21,490 nt of DNA from Promethearchaeota archaeon (lineage in GTDB: Archaea; Asgardarchaeota; Lokiarchaeia; Sigyniarchaeales; SOKP01), in assembly GCA_016839745.1 (NCBI GenBank), contig JAEOTS010000036.1:1-21490 (forward strand). Direction: 5' to 3'. Below are positions 724 to 18,398 of the stretch, piece after piece. Within the stretch, counting starts at the first letter, position 1, and each line of letters begins with the position of its first letter. A model generated the notes under the pieces. It was not told the DNA's origin, did not search any database, and saw only the letters and a list, made by a program, of their open reading frames with translations. The position numbers and the translations under genes are program-made.

Positions 724-1737
724 ATGAATCAAGAAGAATACAGGAATTTTGTAAAAAAGACAGAATCTCTAGTAAAACCTCAAGATGTAACTGGCATTAG
801 TTTTTTGAGCAGTTTCAGCAAATCTCTTCCTTTAAAAACACAACATAAATTTACACAGAGCGGTAAGAAAAGAATTCCCTATATGGGATTCATAGTAGAT
901 CCCTATGGTTTTTTTCTATCTTTTAGAATAACAAATATTTCAGCAGCACAAGAGATGCTCCCCGAAGAATATGAATTAGCAGAAGTCTCATTTTTTAAGG
1001 ACGATGCAAAGTTTCCCATGGTAATTGCGAGCGTATTTACCGCTCGAACATCAGGTTTTATTGGTATGCGAGCCGAGTTTTATATTATTGCTCGCAATAA
1101 AGAAACTGGGATGTTATCTTGGATCATTTGTGATTATGAAACGAATACTAACAGCTATGACCCAAAGAATGGATTCTGTGGGTACACATGTGATCCAGCC
1201 GTGTTTACAACCACATACTCAGGGGAGTTACTGGTTGATATTAAAAATCCCACCAACAATAAAGAATTCGTTGTATCGGTTGATTTAGAAAAAGATGGTT
1301 CAACGGAATTGGATCATTCTCTCTGGATTGATGGAAATCTTATTGTGGATTATGGCGGCGAGCTAAAAAGTGAATTTTCAGAGCCTTTTAGCCTGCTTTT
1401 TGACCCAAATATGGTAAAAGAAGGCGTAAACATACCTTTAGACCAAGTTTCAATCAAGGCAAACACCTATCTGGGTAATATTATTGATCCTGTTAAGCCA
1501 GTAAACGCACTTATCTTTCCTTACAGTCAGCACTTTATTATTAAGCAAGACCTGCCAAAGTATGCGGTTAAAAATCAAGAGGACTTAGAGCTTCAAACAA
1601 AGGATTTCCTTAGTAGAACTGGAGATAAAGCCATGTCAGGTGAGGATATAAAAAAACCCATTTATGGAATGATCAAAATTTCTTACATAGTACTTATCGG
1701 TATAATTGTATTTTTACTAATACTACTCTTTCTATAA
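724..1737 (+). CDS. Hypothetical protein with C-terminal TM anchor; possible acetoacetate-decarboxylase-like beta fold
   Basis: 337-aa ATG ORF. 'FLSFRITNISAAQEMLPEEYEL' followed by alternating beta-strand patterns resembles the ADC-like superfamily N-terminus (inference). Ends in hydrophobic IVLIGIIVFLLILLFL. Confidence 0.75.
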   Translation: MNQEEYRNFVKKTESLVKPQDVTGISFLSSFSKSLPLKTQHKFTQSGKKRIPYMGFIVDPYGFFLSFRITNISAAQEMLPEEYELAEVSFFKDDAKFPMVIASVFTARTSGFIGMRAEFYIIARNKETGMLSWIICDYETNTNSYDPKNGFCGYTCDPAVFTTTYSGELLVDIKNPTNNKEFVVSVDLEKDGSTELDHSLWIDGNLIVDYGGELKSEFSEPFSLLFDPNMVKEGVNIPLDQVSIKANTYLGNIIDPVKPVNALIFPYSQHFIIKQDLPKYAVKNQEDLELQTKDFLSRTGDKAMSGEDIKKPIYGMIKISYIVLIGIIVFLLILLFL

Positions 1738-2455: not shown

Positions 2456-4831
2456 TTAAAAGGAATTATGAATCTTTAAAGCAGTTTGACGTCCGTCTCT
2501 TACTGATTCAATTATAGTGTATGTTTGCGGGTAATCTGAATACCATCGGCCACTTGAAACAATTGATTTTGATATATCCTCAAGCTTTAAGTCAAAGGGT
2601 GCTGTTAAATAAATATAATCGTAATTTTTCGCTAGTTTAACTAATTGTTCCTGTTCCTTGAGTTCCCATTTAAAATTAAAATTCATTTCGCTTGAAACCA
2701 TGGAATTAAGCTCTTTTTGAAGTACATTTTCAACTATCGTATTGTTCTCAACATATTTCAACAGTCTCCCGCCTAGTTTATCCTCCTTTTCAAAATAATC
2801 TATTGAATAACCTAGTCGTGCGAGAAAATAACCACATGTCAATCCTGCAGGACCAGCACCAATTATTGCAATCTTTTTCCCGTTAATTGTTGAATAATAA
2901 TCTGACCATCCATTAGCATCAGTATGAGATGCAATCCATTTATGTAATTCTTGTATAGGCATCGCATTCTCTGTAAAGGTTTTGCGATAGCATTGCTTTT
3001 CACAGAAAGATTCTGGAGAACAAACATAACCACAAATTTCAGCTAAAGGATTTGATTCCCTGATTGCTTTAGTCGCCCCATTAAAATTACCTGCTTCTAT
3101 TCTTCTCATAAAATTTGGTATATCAATATGAGCAGGACATGCCGCAATACATGGTGCATCTTGACAATGTTGACAGAGCCGTGCTATTTTTCTTGCAATT
3201 TCAGGATTATACTCCATAATATTGGGGATCTCATACTTTTCCTTAGAGCTAATAGAGGTCACATATTTGTCTTCTACATTGTCTTTATATGTCTCTTTTT
3301 TTAATTCTCTTAGGATTACATTTGCTACAGCAAATCCAGATACTGTAACAGCGGGTAAACCCATACCCATTGTTGTAGAATCTCCACAGGCATACAGATT
3401 TTTCCAATCAGTTTTCGCATTTAGTCTATTCATAAGATCTTGTCCAATACTTTGTTTTGGGCCCCCTACACAACCCCAATTCTTTAATGTATATTTTTCA
3501 ATAGTCGAAGGAGTTCCAATATTTAACATTCTTAAACCTTTTCTAAAATCAGGTAATCTTTTCTCAATCTCATCTAGTATTAAATCTGCTTGTTTTTTCT
3601 TACTTGAATAATAATCTTCTGAATGATATTCCTGATCTTTTGGATTGGGCCATGTTTGGTTTGGTGCTGGTGAGAATATCGTTAATATATGTTCATCTTC
3701 AGGACCTAATGTGTGATCATCAAATGTGGGTATATACATAGTAATGTCTCCCATATCAATTTCAGAACTATCTGATACATAGTATTCGACTGGAGATGTA
3801 CCTTTAGGGAAAACTGATTTTTCAACTGCTGCATGCAGAATCATAGCAGGATATGTATGCTCCAAAGAATCGACCCAATTTTTTTGCTTGGTTGATATCA
3901 AATTTAACGGGATTAGGTCATTATAAAGATTCCAGACTGTAGTACCAGATATTATTTTTTCTGCTTTAATTTTTGAGCCATCTATGAGTAATACTCCATT
4001 CGCTTTTTTCCCATCAAAAAGTATTTTGTTAACTCTCGTTCTATATAACAGTGTACCACCATTCTTTTCAATTGATTTTTCCAGAGTATTGCTATATGTC
4101 TGAGCTGATCCTGCGATATAATAACTCCCACCAATGTGATTATCTGTAAATGTAGTCAATGCCATAATTGCAGGAGTTTCTTCAGCAGTACAGTAAATAT
4201 AACTTGAACATAACATATCAAAGAATTCAATCAGCCTTTCACTTTTTATATATGGTTCCATGATATCTTTTGCTGATTTGGTTAGTAAATCCCTCATATT
4301 CATGGCTCTTTTTGGGTTATCAAAAAGCATTTTTAATTTATCTTTAAGAGTTAATTCAGAGGGAGTTGTAAGCATTTCATATCCTCGAATATTATTATTA
4401 TAAAAATCCATCAAAAAGCTATAGAAAGCTTCAAGCTCTTCTTTTTCTTCAGGAAATGCCTTTTTCAATTCAACAACAAATCTATTTATATCTTTATAAA
4501 AGTTGATTATTCTACCTTTAAAATTCAATCTAAAGAACGCTTCTCTTGGAATAATATCTAATTCTTCTTCAAGAGAGTTCATCAAGATTCTTTCTGGGTG
4601 AAATCCTTCAGTTCCAAAGCCAAAAAATAAAGCAGCTCCCGAATCGAATATTCGATCTTCTCTTCTAAAACTAGTACAAGCTCCACCGGGAAGATAATGT
4701 TGCTCGACAATTAAAACATCAATTCCTCTTTTAGCTAGAAGTGCTCCTGCTGTCAAAGAGCCCAAACCTGCTCCAATAATTATGACATCATATTTTTCTT
4801 TTAATAATGCTTTTGAATTTAAAATTCCCAT
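2456..4831 (-). CDS. CrtI/retinol-saturase-like FAD-dependent oxidoreductase fused to a C-terminal GltD/dihydropyrimidine dehydrogenase-type 4Fe-4S + FAD module
   Basis: N-terminal DVIIIGAGLGSL...EQHYLPGG...FDSGA and NLYACGDST.MGMGLPAV are CrtI-family motifs. From about residue 553 it has CQHCQDAPCIAACP..IDIP, NPLAEICGYVC...CEKQC and KKIAIIGAGPAGLTCG, typical of the GltD/PreT family. Confidence 0.85.
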   Translation of the reverse strand: MGILNSKALLKEKYDVIIIGAGLGSLTAGALLAKRGIDVLIVEQHYLPGGACTSFRREDRIFDSGAALFFGFGTEGFHPERILMNSLEEELDIIPREAFFRLNFKGRIINFYKDINRFVVELKKAFPEEKEELEAFYSFLMDFYNNNIRGYEMLTTPSELTLKDKLKMLFDNPKRAMNMRDLLTKSAKDIMEPYIKSERLIEFFDMLCSSYIYCTAEETPAIMALTTFTDNHIGGSYYIAGSAQTYSNTLEKSIEKNGGTLLYRTRVNKILFDGKKANGVLLIDGSKIKAEKIISGTTVWNLYNDLIPLNLISTKQKNWVDSLEHTYPAMILHAAVEKSVFPKGTSPVEYYVSDSSEIDMGDITMYIPTFDDHTLGPEDEHILTIFSPAPNQTWPNPKDQEYHSEDYYSSKKKQADLILDEIEKRLPDFRKGLRMLNIGTPSTIEKYTLKNWGCVGGPKQSIGQDLMNRLNAKTDWKNLYACGDSTTMGMGLPAVTVSGFAVANVILRELKKETYKDNVEDKYVTSISSKEKYEIPNIMEYNPEIARKIARLCQHCQDAPCIAACPAHIDIPNFMRRIEAGNFNGATKAIRESNPLAEICGYVCSPESFCEKQCYRKTFTENAMPIQELHKWIASHTDANGWSDYYSTINGKKIAIIGAGPAGLTCGYFLARLGYSIDYFEKEDKLGGRLLKYVENNTIVENVLQKELNSMVSSEMNFNFKWELKEQEQLVKLAKNYDYIYLTAPFDLKLEDISKSIVSSGRWYSDYPQTYTIIESVRDGRQTALKIHNSF

Positions 4832-11434: not shown

Positions 11435-12721
11435 ATGAATGACATTAGAAATAAATTAAAAATTCCAGACAATGCATTAAGGGTGATAAACGATTTTCTT
11501 CTTGATGATAAAAATCCGTTAATAAATGATCTCTTAACTATCATAGATAATTATGGCGGAGTAGAAGAGATTAATAAGAAAGCGGAGGAAGCAAGTAAAA
11601 TTGAGACCCTTATGGCACAATTAGAAAAAAACAATTCAAATTATGTTAAGGATTTAGAATGGTTGATTTCCCAACGGGATAAACAGGCTTTTATAAGCAT
11701 AGCAGATTATAGGAAAAAGATCTTAGGTGATAAAATGTCTGAAATGACCTTTAACGAGGATTTTGCTGTAACATTAGAGCTCTCTGCCTGCCAATACTTT
11801 CCTTTCTTGATGGATATGACAAGGGATGCAATTAAAAATCAAAAGTTAGTACCTGGCAGAATTATTCGCGTACGATATATGAAAGAACAGGAACAAGATG
11901 GTGATTTACTCGCTATGGCAGCAGCAATGCAAATCATTGGTTCGACATGGGTTGAGACTCTAGATACAAAAGGAACAGCACCTGGACCAGATGGTATGCC
12001 TGTAAATGTGCATCTTGGAGGACCTGATACGATTACCGGATATTTTGGCGGCGTTGGACAACCAAACGATTTTGCATTGAAATGGATTGACGAATTTCTT
12101 TATTATTACACAAATTATGGCATCAAACAAGTCCTTAATGTAAATCCTGGAACTGTATTATTAGGTTATTTTATCCATAAACTGGGCATTAATAATGAGT
12201 TTAAGATAAGTGTATACATGGGTAACGATAATCCATATTCTTGTCTTTGGACTTTGTTAACTGCTAAATTGTTTGCACGAGAGGATGGAACAAGTCCCTT
12301 AATCGGTTTTAATTTATCAAATTCTGTGAATAATGAAACTCTTGAAATGGCAGCTTATATAAGAAAACCATTTGGATTCGAGGATGTTGTAAGGCTTGAG
12401 CATCACATAACAGAAACCTGGAAATCGATAGTAAGGCAACCGTACGACAGAAGGGATGAATTGCTTGAATTAGCACATAAAGTGAAGAACGTGAGTGCCA
12501 AACACGAAGGAGCAGACGTTGAAGTTGATGAAAAGCGAGAACATCCTACAGATATTCTTGAATATTTCATGTCTAAAGAAGAAATTAAAGAGGCAGGGAT
12601 ATGGGAAGCGCTTCGCATAAACTTACTTGATCGATATGATGCTGTTAATACAACGGCTAAAGCATTAACTGAAAACGGATTAACTTTTATAGCTGCTAAA
12701 AATTTACATCACAGGGATTAA
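11435..12721 (+). CDS. Uncharacterised soluble protein, probable (beta/alpha)8 TIM-barrel enzyme; first gene of an operon with the DapA-Fae fusion
   Basis: 428-aa ATG ORF. About eight short hydrophobic strands end in polar residues (VTLELSA, RIIRVR, VETLDTK, VLNVN, EFKISV, IGFNLS, RLEHH, SAKHE). 20-nt gap to the next gene. Confidence 0.75.
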   Translation: MNDIRNKLKIPDNALRVINDFLLDDKNPLINDLLTIIDNYGGVEEINKKAEEASKIETLMAQLEKNNSNYVKDLEWLISQRDKQAFISIADYRKKILGDKMSEMTFNEDFAVTLELSACQYFPFLMDMTRDAIKNQKLVPGRIIRVRYMKEQEQDGDLLAMAAAMQIIGSTWVETLDTKGTAPGPDGMPVNVHLGGPDTITGYFGGVGQPNDFALKWIDEFLYYYTNYGIKQVLNVNPGTVLLGYFIHKLGINNEFKISVYMGNDNPYSCLWTLLTAKLFAREDGTSPLIGFNLSNSVNNETLEMAAYIRKPFGFEDVVRLEHHITETWKSIVRQPYDRRDELLELAHKVKNVSAKHEGADVEVDEKREHPTDILEYFMSKEEIKEAGIWEALRINLLDRYDAVNTTAKALTENGLTFIAAKNLHHRD

Positions 12722-12725
12722 TTAT

Positions 12726-12731
12726 AGGAGG
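12726..12731 (+). promoter_or_regulatory. Shine-Dalgarno AGGAGG for the DapA-Fae gene
   Basis: AGGAGG ends 10 nt before the ATG at 12742, just after the upstream stop codon. Confidence 0.75.
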
Positions 12732-12741
12732 ATATATTTAA

Positions 12742-14232
12742 ATGGGTAAATTTGATTTTAGACCAACAGGAGTTATGCCTGCTTTGGTGACTCCTTTTAA
12801 CAAAGATGATGAGTCAATAAATGAAGAAAACCTTAGAAATCTAATAAATCACCTCATAGAACAAGGAGTTACGGGACTCGTGCCTGTAGGCACGACTGGA
12901 GAGTTCGTTAATATGACGTTTGAGGAAAGATTGAGAGTTATTGAAATTGTTGTAGACGAAACGAACGGAAGAGTTCCAGTAATTGCAGGAACAGGAGAGA
13001 CCGGAACGAAAATGGTAATAGACGCTACTAAAGCTGCAACAGATATTGGGGCTGATGCTGCTATTATAGTAACCCCATATTATTTAAAACCTAAAGCAAA
13101 GGGATTGTACGATCATTACTTCACGATTGCTGAAAAAACGGATATTCCATTAGTATTGTATAACATTCCAGCTTGTACTGGTGTAGAATTACCTTGGACT
13201 GTGGTAGAAGATCTAGTTGATATCGAAAATATAATCGCGATTAAAGATTCATCTGGTGATTATAAGTATTTTTCAGCATTATTGGAAAAAGTTAGTGATA
13301 AAATTTCTGTTTTGATCGGATGGGACGAAAATGTGTTAGGTGCTTTAGCTGGGGGTGCTGCGGGGTGTATACTTGGATCTGCTAATGTTATACCCAAAAT
13401 TTGGCTTGAAATTTACGATCATGTGAAAAATAATCGCTTGGAGGAAGCTCAGACTCTACAAAAAAAAGTTCAAAAGTTAGCTCGTATGCTAATTAATTCT
13501 GGAGCTTTAGGTGCGAAATCGTGTTTAAATATGATGGACGTTCCCGTAGGCACGACAAGAAAACCTATCATTTTAGGGGATGCACTTTCTTACGAATTAC
13601 AGGACGAATTTCGAGTCGAGTTAGAGAAACTAGGGCTACTAGAAAAGAAAGATATCAAATTTAAAATTGGTGAAAAAGAATTAACAAGCCGCTTTTACGC
13701 TGTAGGGGTAACCCCTGAAAAAATATCAGATTTTAGATTAAAAGTTGGGGAATCGCTTGTAGGAAATAGAGTGGAATTAGCACATATTGACTTGCTAATA
13801 GGAAGTAAAGACGGTCCCGTAGGAGATGCTTACGCTCGAGCTTTAACTCATCCAGCTAAAGGTCGAGAGGGATTGCAGGTAATCCTTGAACCAAATATGC
13901 AGGTTAAGCCGGCAACCATAATGATCCCTACAGTGAAGGTTACCTCTCTGCGACACGCGAGCTTAACTTATGGTCCCGCTCAAGCGGCAGTAGCAAAAGC
14001 TATAATGAAGTGTGTAGAGGATGGAATCCTACCTAAAGAAGCCGCAGACGATATTTTAATTATCGTAAATGTATTTGTACACCCGAGTGCGAGTGCTCGA
14101 AAACGAGTTTTCATTAACAACTATAAAGCAACTAGAAATGCGATTCGAAAAGCGATGGAAGGGTTACCAACGGTAGAGGATGGTATCGAAAACGCTGAAA
14201 ATGCTCGACATCCCTTCAGGAACGATCCATAA
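12742..14232 (+). CDS. fae: Fusion of a DapA/NanA-family class I aldolase (about residues 1-300) and formaldehyde-activating enzyme Fae (about residues 334-496)
   Basis: DapA part: PALVTPF, GTTGE, PYY, LYNIP (Y140), IKDSSGD (Schiff-base K168). Fae part from 13741: VGESLVG...AHIDLLIG (H348), KPATIMIP, GPAQAAVAKA, VFVHP, NNYKAT, terminal HPF. Single uninterrupted frame. Confidence 0.92.
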   Translation: MGKFDFRPTGVMPALVTPFNKDDESINEENLRNLINHLIEQGVTGLVPVGTTGEFVNMTFEERLRVIEIVVDETNGRVPVIAGTGETGTKMVIDATKAATDIGADAAIIVTPYYLKPKAKGLYDHYFTIAEKTDIPLVLYNIPACTGVELPWTVVEDLVDIENIIAIKDSSGDYKYFSALLEKVSDKISVLIGWDENVLGALAGGAAGCILGSANVIPKIWLEIYDHVKNNRLEEAQTLQKKVQKLARMLINSGALGAKSCLNMMDVPVGTTRKPIILGDALSYELQDEFRVELEKLGLLEKKDIKFKIGEKELTSRFYAVGVTPEKISDFRLKVGESLVGNRVELAHIDLLIGSKDGPVGDAYARALTHPAKGREGLQVILEPNMQVKPATIMIPTVKVTSLRHASLTYGPAQAAVAKAIMKCVEDGILPKEAADDILIIVNVFVHPSASARKRVFINNYKATRNAIRKAMEGLPTVEDGIENAENARHPFRNDP

Positions 14233-14964: not shown

Positions 14965-15522
14965 TTGAAATTCTATTCAAATGATTTTATACTTGTAATA
15001 GTTTTAAAATCCAAAAATTTCAAGGAGTTGATTAATATAGCTGATAAAATTGTTGAATTAAAGGTTGGAGATCCTGCTCCAGATTTTTGCCTTCCGGATA
15101 AAGACAATAACGAAGTGTGTCTTAAAGATTTTAAAGGCAAATATACTATCGTCTACTTTTATCCGAAAGATAATACGCCAGGTTGTACCACGGAAGCTAT
15201 TGGTTTCACTGGAATTCTTACCGAACTTCAAAAATTAAACACAGAAGTGATCGGTATAAGCCCTGATAGCCCTGAATCCCACGCCAAATTCATTGCTAAG
15301 AAGGAGTTAAAAGTTACGCTTCTAAGCGACCTAAATAAGGATGTTATTAAGTCGTATGGGAAATGGGGTAAGAAGAAATTCCGAGGTAAGGAGTATTTAG
15401 GAGTTACTCGTAGTACCTTTTTGATAAATCCTGAAGGAAAACTTGCTTATATTTGGCCTAAAGTTTCTGTGAAGGGACATCCAGAGGAATTACAGAAAAT
15501 TTTAAAGGAGTTACAAAATTAA
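14965..15522 (+). CDS. bcp: Bcp/PrxQ peroxiredoxin; true start probably further downstream (about 15028-15037)
   Basis: LKVGDPAPDF, YFYPKDNTPGCTTEA (peroxidatic Cys), GISPD, RSTFLI and V.GH motifs. AGGAG at 15023-15027 argues against the TTG at 14965. Confidence 0.9.
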   Translation: MKFYSNDFILVIVLKSKNFKELINIADKIVELKVGDPAPDFCLPDKDNNEVCLKDFKGKYTIVYFYPKDNTPGCTTEAIGFTGILTELQKLNTEVIGISPDSPESHAKFIAKKELKVTLLSDLNKDVIKSYGKWGKKKFRGKEYLGVTRSTFLINPEGKLAYIWPKVSVKGHPEELQKILKELQN

Positions 15523-15541
15523 AGAGCAATTTTAAATAATA

Positions 15542-17647
15542 ATGGTGGAAAAAATAAACGATAATAAAAGTTTAGGGGAAAAAACAGAATTTTCAAATAA
15601 AGTTAATAAGCTCATAACTGAAAAAAGTCCCTATTTACTTCAACATGTTAATAATCCCGTAAACTGGTATCCTTGGGGCGAAGAAGCCTTCAAAAAGGCA
15701 AAATCAGAAGACAAACCTATCTTCTTATCAATTGGGTATTCCACATGCCACTGGTGTCATGTTATGGCGCACGAATCGTTTGAAGACCCCTATGTAGCAA
15801 AATTATTAAATGAAGCATTTATCTCAATTAAAGTCGATCGTGAAGAACGACCAGATATAGATAAAATCTACATGACTGTTTGTCAACTTATGACCGGTTC
15901 TGGTGGTTGGCCATTAACAATTATCATGACTCCAGATAAAAAACCTTTCTTTGCTGGAACTTATTTCCCAAAGGAAAGCCGATTTGGAAGAATTGGTTTA
16001 ATTGATTTAGTGAAACGAGTGAAAGATCTTTGGACTAACGAGAGAAAACAATTAGTAGATTCGAGCGAAAAGATAACTTTTGCATTACAAGACACAAATG
16101 CTGAATCCCCGGGAAGATCTCTTACGGAAAGCGTTTTGAAAAACTCTTATTCTCAATTATCGAGAAGGTACGATAAAAAAAACGGTGGTTTTGGTACAGC
16201 GCCTAAATTCCCCACTCCACACAATTTATTATTCTTATTACGATTTTGGAAAAGAACAGGTGATGAGGAGGCTCTTAAAATGGTTGAAAAAACACTTGAA
16301 AGCATGCGAATGGGCGGAATTTACGATCACATTGGTTTTGGTTTCCACCGTTATTCAACTGATCCTAACTGGCTTGTACCTCATTTTGAAAAAATGTTAT
16401 ACGATCAAGCATTATTAACTCTTGCCTATTTAGAAGCGTATCAAGCAACCGGAAAGGAGGAATACGCTAATACCGCGAAAGAAGTATTAACATATGTTTT
16501 ACGGGATATGGTATCTTCAGAGGGGGCTTTCTTTAGCGCTGAAGATGCTGATAGTGAAGGAGAAGAAGGTAAATTTTATGTTTGGTCGAAAACTGAAATC
16601 GAAGATATATTAGGAATAGAAGACGCTGAAGTTTTTTCAAAAATCTATAATATTGATGTAAATGGTAATTTTTTAGATGAAGCAACAAAAAAAAAGATTG
16701 GAAAAAACATCCTTCACTTGAAATCCGATTTAACTACACCCACAATTGACATCAAATTACTTAGAAATAAATTATTTGAAGTAAGAGATAAACGAATTAG
16801 ACCTCATAAGGACGATAAAATATTAACTGACTGGAATGGATTAATGATCGCAGCGTTTGCTAAGGCAGGATATGTTCTTAACGATCCTAAATACATTCAA
16901 GTAGCGAAAAAAGCAGTAGATTTTATTTTAAACAAAATGAAAAATTCTGAAGGAAGACTCTTACATCGCTATCGTGAGGGTGGAGCAGATATACTCGCAT
17001 TCATAGACGATTACGCATTCTTGATTTGGGGTTTGATCAACCTTTATGAAGCCTCTTTTGAAACATCATATCTTGAAGAAGCAATTGAATTAACTGAAGA
17101 ACAAATAGGGTTTTTCTGGGATTCTTCAATTGGAGCTTTCTTTTTTACGGCTAAAGACTCAGAATCGTTGTTAACGCGCCAGAAAGAGACCTATGACGGA
17201 GCGATTCCGTCAGGAAATTCAGCTGCAATGCTAAATTTACTAAGACTAGCGCAATTAACAGGCAATGATGAATATGAGAACAAGGCGGATCATCTTGGAC
17301 GGGTTTTTGCTGAAAGTGTTCGCGCTAATCCTGTAGCTCATAGTTTAATGATGGTTGCTGTGGATTATGCGGTTGGTCCTACATATTCCTTAGTTATAGC
17401 CGGAGATAGTGGAAAAGAAGATACAAATTTAATGCTAGATGAAGTTAGAAAACAATTTTTACCCAACAAATCTTTAATTTTTCGTCCTACGGAGGAGTTG
17501 AATCCAGAAATTGATAAACTTTCCAATTTTGTTCAATTCTTTGATAAATACGAAGAAAAGGCTACTGCTTTCGTGTGTATTAATAAAACATGTAAAGCAC
17601 CTACTAATGATATAAAGCAAGCAATAGAGTACTTAAACGCTAAATAA
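15542..17647 (+). CDS. yyaL: YyaL/SSP411 (SPATA20-like) thioredoxin-domain + alpha/alpha-barrel protein
   Basis: [81 protein letters not shown] and DGAIPSGN. Confidence 0.92.
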
Positions 17648-18398
17648 GAGTCGGGTACTTTCCTACGGGAGCGACTAACACTACAAATTCATTTTTTCCA
17701 TCCAATTCCAGTAAAGTATCGAATTTCTTTTGTTCGTAGTAACCAATTGCGACTGTTCCTAAATCTATCGCTTCGCACGCAAGATACAAATTCTCAGAAA
17801 CATGACCCAAATCGACAGCTATGAATTTATGAGCAACAATAGTATATCGCCACTCGGTCCGATAAGGGATAGCAACCCAACAGAATAGTACTGCTCCTTT
17901 TCCGATAAACTTTTGATCATAAGTTAATTTGCCTATTAATTCTTCAGCATTTTCAATGTTTTTAATAAAAAGCAACTTATGCTTAAATGAAATATATCGA
18001 TACATACCAGGCTTAATCCCTTCTACTCGATTAATTATAAGATATGTCTCAAAAGGACTTTTAGCTCCCGCTGAGGGAACAGTTCGTAAAACACCTGTTC
18101 TATCTTTAAAAGCTCTCTTTACCCCTTGTGTACACCATAGCAAAAAAGACAATTCTTCAAGAGTTAACGACTCATCCGTATAATTTCTGCGACTCATTCT
18201 TCTATTAATGGCAACTATGAAAGGTTTTTTCCCAATTATGAATTTTTCAGGAGGAATTAAATCAATAAGAGATTTCGTTTCATCGTAGGGTTTTTGAAAT
18301 AATGGAAACGGTTTATTTTTTTTCTCGTCAGATTCAGGAACCTCTTTTTCGTACTCATCTTGATCAAAAAAATGTAAAAATCGTCGATTATTTTCCAT
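17640..18398 (-). CDS. SagB/ThcOx-family nitroreductase-fold FMN dehydrogenase (stand-alone)
   Basis: [48 protein letters not shown] and GTVAIG. Overlaps the yyaL 3' end by 8 bp (convergent). Confidence 0.88.

Follow-up and report, generated by a model that had tools for sequence, protein, structure and literature searches.

What is the function of a dihydrodipicolinate synthase (DHDPS)-like aldolase that is joined, in a single polypeptide, to a formaldehyde-activating enzyme (Fae)? This question is raised by a gene at positions 12742–14232 of a 21,490-nucleotide stretch of Promethearchaeota archaeon DNA (assembly GCA_016839745.1, contig JAEOTS010000036.1, positions 1 to 21,490), and the whole of this stretch is called the window below. 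The fusion is probably a tetrahydromethanopterin (H4MPT)-linked 2-oxo-acid hydroxymethyltransferase, which would interconvert 4-hydroxy-2-oxobutanoate (HOB) and H4MPT with pyruvate, methylene-H4MPT and water. We infer that formaldehyde serves as the aldehyde, that pyruvate is the keto acid, and that a hand-over takes place between the two domains. The direction leans catabolic, and catabolic operation of the reaction can be proposed tentatively.

Architecture of the Fusion Protein

The features on which the argument depends are located as follows in the window.

11435..12721, forward strand: partner gene, encoding a 428-amino-acid TIM-barrel protein that belongs to no described family and has a remote likeness to U32 (barrel model; no Pfam or NCBIfam match)
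12726..12731, forward strand: Shine–Dalgarno-like AGGAGG, 10 nt before the ATG of the fusion and inside the 20-nt intergenic gap (sequence)
12742..14232, forward strand: DapA-family aldolase–Fae fusion gene, 496 amino acids (open reading frame call, Pfam, NCBIfam; AlphaFold model with pLDDT 84.9 and pTM 0.75)
12763..13641, forward strand: class I (Schiff-base) pyruvate aldolase barrel, residues 8–300, with T51, T52, Y114, Y140 and K168 retained (Pfam, alignment, Foldseek TM 0.94)
13174..13176, forward strand: codon for Cys145, which replaces Arg138 of DHDPS (YNIPACT versus YNVPSRT; non-Arg in every fusion compared)
13642..13743, forward strand: linker of about 35 residues (301–334), partly a beta-hairpin in the prediction, with lower confidence (AlphaFold model)
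13744..14217, forward strand: Fae domain, residues 335–492 (Pfam, TIGR03126, alignments)
within 13744..14217, forward strand: Fae motifs E337, H348, E383-P-N385, G411-P-A-Q414, N443-x-F445, N460 and the C-terminal HPF

The open reading frame contains zero internal stops. Pfam recognizes DHDPS (PF00701) at residues 8–277 (E 4.5e-77) and Fae (PF08714) at residues 335–492 (E 3.8e-57), the latter over profile positions 1–158 of 159, and the TIGR03126 score for Fae is 189.5 against a cut-off of 118. GTTGE lies at residues 50–54, and the Schiff-base K168 and catalytic Y140, which align with K161 and Y133 of Escherichia coli DapA, place the barrel in the DapA/NanA superfamily. In the second domain, which aligns with M. 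extorquens Fae across its entire length, H348 corresponds to the histidine of the AHID motif (PDB 1y5y). The AlphaFold model comprises a TIM barrel, a partly folded linker and a Fae fold, and in Foldseek the barrel matches DapA-family chains with a TM of 0.94.

These results agree with the initial annotation of this DNA, which had described a single 496-residue reading frame with an intact aldolase domain (GTTGE, Y140, K168) and a full-length Fae with its catalytic H348. The linker that it called short does join the domains, but at about 35 residues, partly in a beta-hairpin, it is slightly longer than this word implies. Cys145 at the position of Arg138 of DHDPS was overlooked, as was the fact that the fusion is the second gene of a conserved two-gene unit.

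The Aldolase Domain

Judged from its residues and phylogeny, the fusion barrel is a class I pyruvate-type enzyme that forms a subfamily of its own. Residues T44, T45, Y107, Y133 and K161 of E. coli DapA are retained as T51, T52, Y114, Y140 and K168. R138 is replaced by C145, N248 by G254, S48 by F55 and GDD by GWD, and none of the lysine-site residues H53, H56, N80 and E84 is conserved. In DHDPS, Arg138 and Asn248 bind aspartate semialdehyde, and both are absent in all fusions compared. The replacements at Arg138, Asn248, Ser48 and GDD resemble YagE/YjhH/NanA more than DHDPS, a likeness confined to the residue pattern, since the fusion does not fall within the E. coli YagE/YjhH clade.

The phylogeny was a quick maximum-likelihood tree supported by the SH-like approximate likelihood ratio test (SH-aLRT), with E. 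coli DapA, YagE/YjhH and NanA as references. This tree unites the fusion domains in a single clade (SH-aLRT 91), away from YagE/YjhH and NanA and outside the DHDPS clade (99), which includes both E. coli DapA and the host genome's own dapA. The fusion also scores below the curated cut-offs for NanA (189 against 281), KdgD (110 against 374), archaeal 2-keto-3-deoxygluconate (KDG) aldolase (110 against 390) and the HpaI-type TIGR02313 (192 against 397), and Pfam and NCBIfam scans find no homology to PanB (PF02548) in it. The genuine dapA of the host genome has a TIGR00674 score of 334, carries the motif YNVPSRT and adjoins dapB, dapF and lysA, and no dap gene is recurrent around the fusion in the 99 loci compared. 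The nearest stand-alone DapA-like relatives of the fusion are on short contigs and are uninformative.

Thus, DapA (TIGR00674) and the fusion share the fold (TM 0.94), the Schiff-base lysine, the Tyr/Thr triad and up to 38% identity, whereas the fusion lacks Arg138, Asn248 and the lysine-site residues, belongs to its own clade, is joined to Fae and lies outside the dap cluster. The earlier suggestion that it is no ordinary DHDPS is borne out by the lost Arg138, the separate clade and the true dapA elsewhere in the genome, and the phylogenetic comparison then proposed does separate the domain from DHDPS, YagE/YjhH and NanA. A much longer protein, P0142 (757 amino acids), also belongs to the aldolase clade of the fusion.

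Distribution and Link with the H4MPT Pathway

Both domains are present in all of the best 120 database matches, at 85–95% identity. The nearest relatives belong to Promethearchaeota (Lokiarchaeia) genomes (74–95% identity), and about 70 full-length fusion loci were retrieved from Asgard genomes. Among the 251 genomes of the phylum searched, full-length fusions occur in ten families (f1, f2, f8, f10, f13, f14, f17, f19, f22 and f28), and forms with 35–55% identity are found in records named Anaerolineae and Thermoproteota/Korarchaeota, as well as in another archaeal contig. The domain order is constant across the ten Asgard families and the other phyla. Because of this broad conservation, the fusion is neither a singleton nor an assembly chimera, two possibilities that had been raised at the outset and are now ruled out. 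One contig (L005), from a record named Candidatus Nanopelagicaceae bacterium, carries a fusion with 95% and a partner with 81% identity among Lokiarchaeia-like neighbors; it is probably misbinned.

The co-occurrence with H4MPT genes that had been proposed as a check is also observed. The host genome encodes Mch, Mtd and Ftr, and Mch is found in all fusion-bearing families (f1 54/54, f8 57/59, f13 18/19, f14 3/3, f28 5/5); four fusion-bearing genomes, with a completeness of 74–90%, gave no Mch match. Conversely, no fusion was found in the Mch-less families searched (f6 0/26, f23 0/16, f15 0/10), and likewise none in f18, f21 and the genus g9.

The Fae Domain and Its Tandem Duplicates

Selection on the Fae site can be followed in loci where the fusion gene is duplicated in tandem, which occur in f8, f10, f22 and five non-Asgard or unplaced loci. 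In 11 of the 11 pairs examined, the two copies keep the Fae motifs in complementary halves: one copy retains E383-P-N385 and G411-P-x-Q414 and has lost E337, H348, N460 and the terminal HPF, while the other has the reverse pattern. Single fusions retain both sets. Tandem paralogs with complementary motif loss are located at the following positions.

L113:7303-10191, L114:7104-10008, L115:7706-10587 and L188:3736-6649: tandem aldolase–Fae paralogs
L216:6544-9449, L223:9001-11684 and L226:7528-10479: further tandem aldolase–Fae paralogs

The complementary halves in 11 pairs indicate that the Fae site is under selection, and the pattern, as read from aligned motifs, is expected only with a ligand-binding Fae site. 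The cofactor of Fae is bound between two subunits; therefore, the simplest reading of the pairs is a heteromer with one complete interface site, and the tandem paralogs probably form such a heteromer with a split active site. Alternating copies would be unable to close the five-membered ring of Fae, so the assembly may differ from that of known Fae. In addition, the tetramers of the DapA family and the pentamers of Fae are mismatched in symmetry.

Another protein in which a formaldehyde-linked aldolase barrel is joined to Fae is Fae-Hps (NF009833). It differs from the fusion in having an Hps barrel instead of the Schiff-base DapA-family barrel and in its reversed domain order, and the fusion lacks the sugar-phosphate context of Fae-Hps. 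The NF009833 match on the fusion covers Fae alone, with a score of 156 against a cut-off of 274. Fae-Hps has been mentioned in Asgard genomes in a report that makes no mention of DapA–Fae (PMC11291895).

The Partner Barrel

A 20-nt gap containing AGGAGG separates the partner gene from the fusion, and the pair is bounded by one divergent and one convergent gene. A partner homolog adjoins the fusion in 79 of the 99 loci; the same arrangement is seen in f28 and on two high-GC contigs whose fusions are in tandem. Within f1, partner and fusion are both present in 36 genomes and both missing in 15, and the fusion occurs alone in only one, at a contig end. The partner family is unnamed and has at least 8000 database matches. 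The protein matches no Pfam or NCBIfam family, and a PDB sequence search with it returns generic TIM barrels only; its model is a TIM barrel for which fold searches likewise yield generic TIM barrels (Z up to 11.7), excluding no family. With a U32-like family, the partner shares a weak similarity that holds in both directions of comparison (hhalign probability 20–40%), and it has no invariant cysteine. The idea that the partner is a decayed paralog of the fusion was rejected, as no similarity exists between them, and when the aldolase domain was modeled in complex with the partner, the score was 0.00, which counts neither for nor against an interaction.

In f10, f13, f14, f19, f22 and part of f17, the partner is replaced by a different, 315-amino-acid U32-like barrel. 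The two are nearly mutually exclusive and weakly similar over the barrel. This Cys-less U32-like family has the following members.

L113:6340-7287: U32-like barrel gene and its family
L229:9001-9936, L230:8980-9918 and L233:9121-9582: further U32-like barrel genes

Bacterial homologs of the U32-like barrel are found in sugar-acid clusters of Thermomicrobium and Streptomyces, together with a DgoD-like dehydratase. Another, with its gene in two pieces, lies directly before dmpF–dmpG on a Mycobacterium plasmid, and an Enterobacter plasmid carries one in a biosynthetic-looking cluster with a kinase, an aminotransferase and iron redox enzymes.

Gene Neighborhoods Pointing to 4-Hydroxy-2-oxobutanoate

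The substrate is suggested by the genes that accompany the partner elsewhere. HOB can be viewed as homoserine in its keto-acid form, as pyruvate to which a hydroxymethyl group has been added, and as oxidized 2,4-dihydroxybutanoate. An operon led by the partner and also containing genes for a class I aminotransferase, homoserine dehydrogenase and aldehyde:ferredoxin oxidoreductase (AOR) is found in f6 and f23, both of which lack Mch, and on many low-GC contigs from metagenomes; in f23, a gene for the C–S lyase PatB often comes next. Such a module would convert HOB to homoserine, aspartate semialdehyde and then aspartate. Seven contigs, probably bacterial, have a PanB-like gene next to the partner or close by, and in one of them the two genes make up a closed unit like that of the fusion. 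In two Mch-less g9 genomes, the partner follows an unrelated DapA-like protein that lacks both the arginine and Fae, which looks like an independent recruitment of an aldolase.

L189, L196, L198, L202, L205, L206 and L211: PanB-like genes linked to the partner barrel
L234:6778-7824 and L250:6085-7131: very divergent DapA-like protein immediately preceding the partner; it has a YQLPQ motif and lacks Arg138

The partner-linked PanB-like proteins form their own clade (100) and keep the catalytic residues, with the changes V179L, I202L, I212L and V214I at positions which we take to surround the two methyls of 2-oxoisovalerate in the PanB pocket. From these substitutions, the clade is a candidate folate-dependent pyruvate hydroxymethyltransferase, that is, a folate version of the one-carbon (C1) transfer proposed for the fusion. 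In Polaromonas, the partner adjoins genes for Ldh2, Fe-ADH and a semialdehyde dehydrogenase, which could oxidize the hydroxy-acid form, and elsewhere it adjoins an amino-acid dehydrogenase or an Ldh2 dehydrogenase. In f8, the gene before the partner encodes an ECF transporter S-component, and a ThrC-like gene is close by (L244-L248, L252). Clues to amino acids near these modules are the aminotransferases, the amino-acid dehydrogenase and the PatB C–S lyase.

Gene order suggests that HOB would be the compound joining the aminotransferase/homoserine dehydrogenase/AOR module, the PanB-like module and the fusion, and the partner barrel is a probable maker or user of it. HOB had already been named as the substrate in the initial annotation, and this part gains comparative support from the partner's other neighbors. 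The proposed origin from tetronate does not, as no sugar-acid dehydratase was found in the 99 fusion loci.

Proposed Reaction and Related Enzymes

In the proposed mechanism, HOB would be bound as a Schiff base on K168, and retro-aldol cleavage would give the pyruvate enamine and formaldehyde. The Fae site would then condense formaldehyde with H4MPT to methylene-H4MPT, and the fusion of the two domains would keep free formaldehyde low. Cleavage of HOB alone is uphill and the Fae step is downhill, so coupling would bring the overall reaction close to equilibrium, as is the case with PanB and serine hydroxymethyltransferase. The partner, as an enolizing barrel, might make HOB by elimination and addition at C4 of a 2-oxo-4-substituted butanoate, via 2-oxo-3-butenoate. 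If methionine's keto acid were the source and methanethiol were released, this would fit the aminotransferase, amino-acid dehydrogenase and C–S lyase neighbors; such an origin is possible but rather doubtful. Run catabolically, the reaction might feed pyruvate and C1 into the archaeal Wood–Ljungdahl branch.

The cleavage chemistry is within the capability of DapA-family enzymes, since pyruvate aldolases of E. coli, including YagE and YjhH, were deleted to prevent cleavage of HOB into pyruvate and formaldehyde (PMC13279387). In the synthetic homoserine cycle, HOB counts as non-native according to a review (PMC8879981). YagE/YjhH and the HOB aldolase of that cycle resemble the fusion in being DapA-family enzymes without Arg138 and in the same proposed C–C chemistry; however, HOB cleavage by YagE/YjhH is a side activity on free formaldehyde, whereas the fusion, from a different clade, is proposed to be dedicated and carrier-coupled. 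PanB and, by analogy, serine hydroxymethyltransferase move a hydroxymethyl group between a methylene-pterin and a carbanion, and the PanB-like clade occupies the place of the fusion beside the same partner gene. These enzymes use a metal enolate or pyridoxal phosphate (PLP) with folate, while the fusion would use a Schiff base, two active sites and H4MPT. In DmpG–DmpF, an aldolase for a 4-hydroxy-2-oxo acid, 4-hydroxy-2-oxovalerate, is similarly tied to an aldehyde-trapping enzyme, an acylating aldehyde dehydrogenase, but the aldolase is class II, the substrates are acetaldehyde and CoA, and two polypeptides are involved.

Weighing of Alternative Explanations

Several observations weigh against the proposed hydroxymethyltransferase. 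All of the substrate evidence is guilt by association through the partner barrel, and the co-occurrence counts of fusion and Mch are overstated because relatives are not independent. The position of Lys71 of M. extorquens Fae is Thr in most fusions, with the remaining motifs mostly kept. The host genome encodes a second Fae, a Fae-Hps on another contig, so the fused Fae is not needed for general formaldehyde capture. The PanB tree contained few canonical bacterial rows, and the long PanB-like branch may therefore be partly taxonomic. Additionally, the TIGR00674 score of the fusion, 237, exceeds the cut-off of 206.15, which explains its database name of DapA or DHDPS, and the nearest solved structures of its barrel are DHDPS in both PDB sequence and Foldseek searches. 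The last two points, with the name 4-hydroxy-tetrahydrodipicolinate synthase in the source records of homologs, favor what the database annotation implies, namely a second DHDPS of lysine synthesis with a functionally unlinked Fae. This is highly improbable in view of the missing Arg138 and Asn248, the separate clade, the true dapA in a dap/lys cluster and the lack of recurrent dap genes in the 99 fusion loci. A larger substrate of the KDG, 2-keto-3-deoxyxylonate (KDX) or 4-hydroxy-2-oxoglutarate type, with Fae acting separately as a detoxifier, a scaffold or a binder of another aldehyde or pterin, would suit the YagE/YjhH-like active-site pattern, the sugar-acid clusters and DgoD-like dehydratase around bacterial homologs of the alternative barrel, and the Thr at the Lys71 position. 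It is nevertheless unlikely, because the fusion is kept in the same order in ten Asgard families and other phyla, only where Mch occurs, both faces of the Fae site are conserved even when split over two paralogs, and no sugar-acid genes recur in the 99 loci.

The keto acid might instead be 2-oxoisovalerate, making the fusion an H4MPT-using PanB substitute that forms ketopantoate, or 2-oxobutanoate, as the partner adjoins PanB homologs that pass the panB cut-off and an ECF S-component in f8. There is little probability in this proposal: the ordinary panB is mostly kept with the fusion (host genome, f8 51/59, f13 18/19, f28 5/5), which makes a ketopantoate role unlikely, and replacement of PanB by the fusion was rejected for the same reason. 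Moreover, the partner-linked PanBs differ from ordinary PanB at the pocket positions, the aminotransferase and homoserine dehydrogenase module suits homoserine better than pantoate, and DapA-family enzymes mostly demand pyruvate. Nearer to the proposed hydroxymethyltransferase is the same reaction run anabolically, a direction that the initial annotation also considered: methylene-H4MPT and pyruvate would give HOB, which would go on to homoserine or, with a thiol and the partner barrel, yield methionine or homocysteine. Few genomes of the fusion-bearing families encode homoserine dehydrogenase (f8 3/59, f13 0/19, f14 0/3, f22 0/3, f28 0/5), and within f1 it is present in 13/37 fusion-positive against 13/15 fusion-negative genomes, which are kin and not independent; a ThrC-like gene lies near the partner in f8, where this dehydrogenase is mostly missing, and it is energetically favorable to form a thioether from a thiol and an alcohol. 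Against this, the host genome encodes Hom, ThrH, ThrC, Asd, two HcyBio genes and a homocysteine methyltransferase domain, so the usual threonine and homocysteine routes are present and an anabolic one is unneeded; the enzymes of the alternative modules, AOR and a semialdehyde dehydrogenase, typically work in the oxidative direction, and loss of Hom equally fits auxotrophic amino-acid fermenters. Anabolic operation appears somewhat unlikely. As for outright replacement of homoserine dehydrogenase by the fusion, there is a trend only, and the host genome has both. Replacement of HcyBio in methionine synthesis by the module does not hold in f1, where HcyBio occurs in 51/54 genomes.

Other Features of the Window and Loci

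Further genes were noted in the window and in one of the compared loci.

256-687 and 724-1737, forward strand: adjacent open reading frames, mutually similar, with no Pfam family
2456-4831, reverse strand: 791-amino-acid fusion of a carotenoid isomerase/desaturase-like FAD domain and a GltD-like Fe-S/NAD(P) domain
14965-18398: peroxiredoxin (Bcp), DUF255 thioredoxin-domain protein and SagB-type nitroreductase
L258:2663-7771 (G000 contig C116): two MttB-like methyltransferase genes, one scanned and one recognized by eye, adjoining a Cys/Met PLP lyase that is below every curated cut-off

Genes for peroxiredoxin, a nitroreductase and the DUF255 protein are found again downstream of the fusion in some 50 Lokiarchaeia loci but hardly in distant ones, and this near confinement to Lokiarchaeia probably reflects lineage synteny.

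Biological Meaning

No published description of the fusion or of its natural reaction was found in a literature search whose coverage excluded most subscription journals, and in it the interconversion of HOB with pyruvate and formaldehyde was described only in engineered bacteria. A natural pathway so far undescribed, in anaerobic archaea and bacteria alike, may center on HOB, a possibility that falls somewhat short of even. A new barrel family would interconvert HOB with a 4-substituted 2-oxobutanoate, such as methionine's keto acid with gain or loss of methanethiol, and interchangeable modules would act on HOB and tie it to central metabolism: the aldolase–Fae fusion with H4MPT, the PanB-like protein with folate, or the aminotransferase with homoserine dehydrogenase and AOR. 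If true, this hub run forward would assemble the C4 backbone of an amino acid from carrier-bound C1 and pyruvate, with no ATP, and the anabolic reaction would be a natural version of the step in the synthetic homoserine cycle.

If the proposed hydroxymethyltransferase activity is real, the fusion would be a natural, dedicated pyruvate–formaldehyde aldolase with a built-in formaldehyde trap, a step that synthetic methylotrophy presently borrows from promiscuous enzymes. The reaction hypothesis also gives a direct test for the large unannotated partner family and for the PanB-like clade. The Asgard lineages that carry the fusion are relatives of eukaryotes, and because the protein is annotated as a lysine enzyme, which it does not appear to be, metabolic reconstructions of Asgard archaea would miss a link between amino acids and H4MPT-bound C1.

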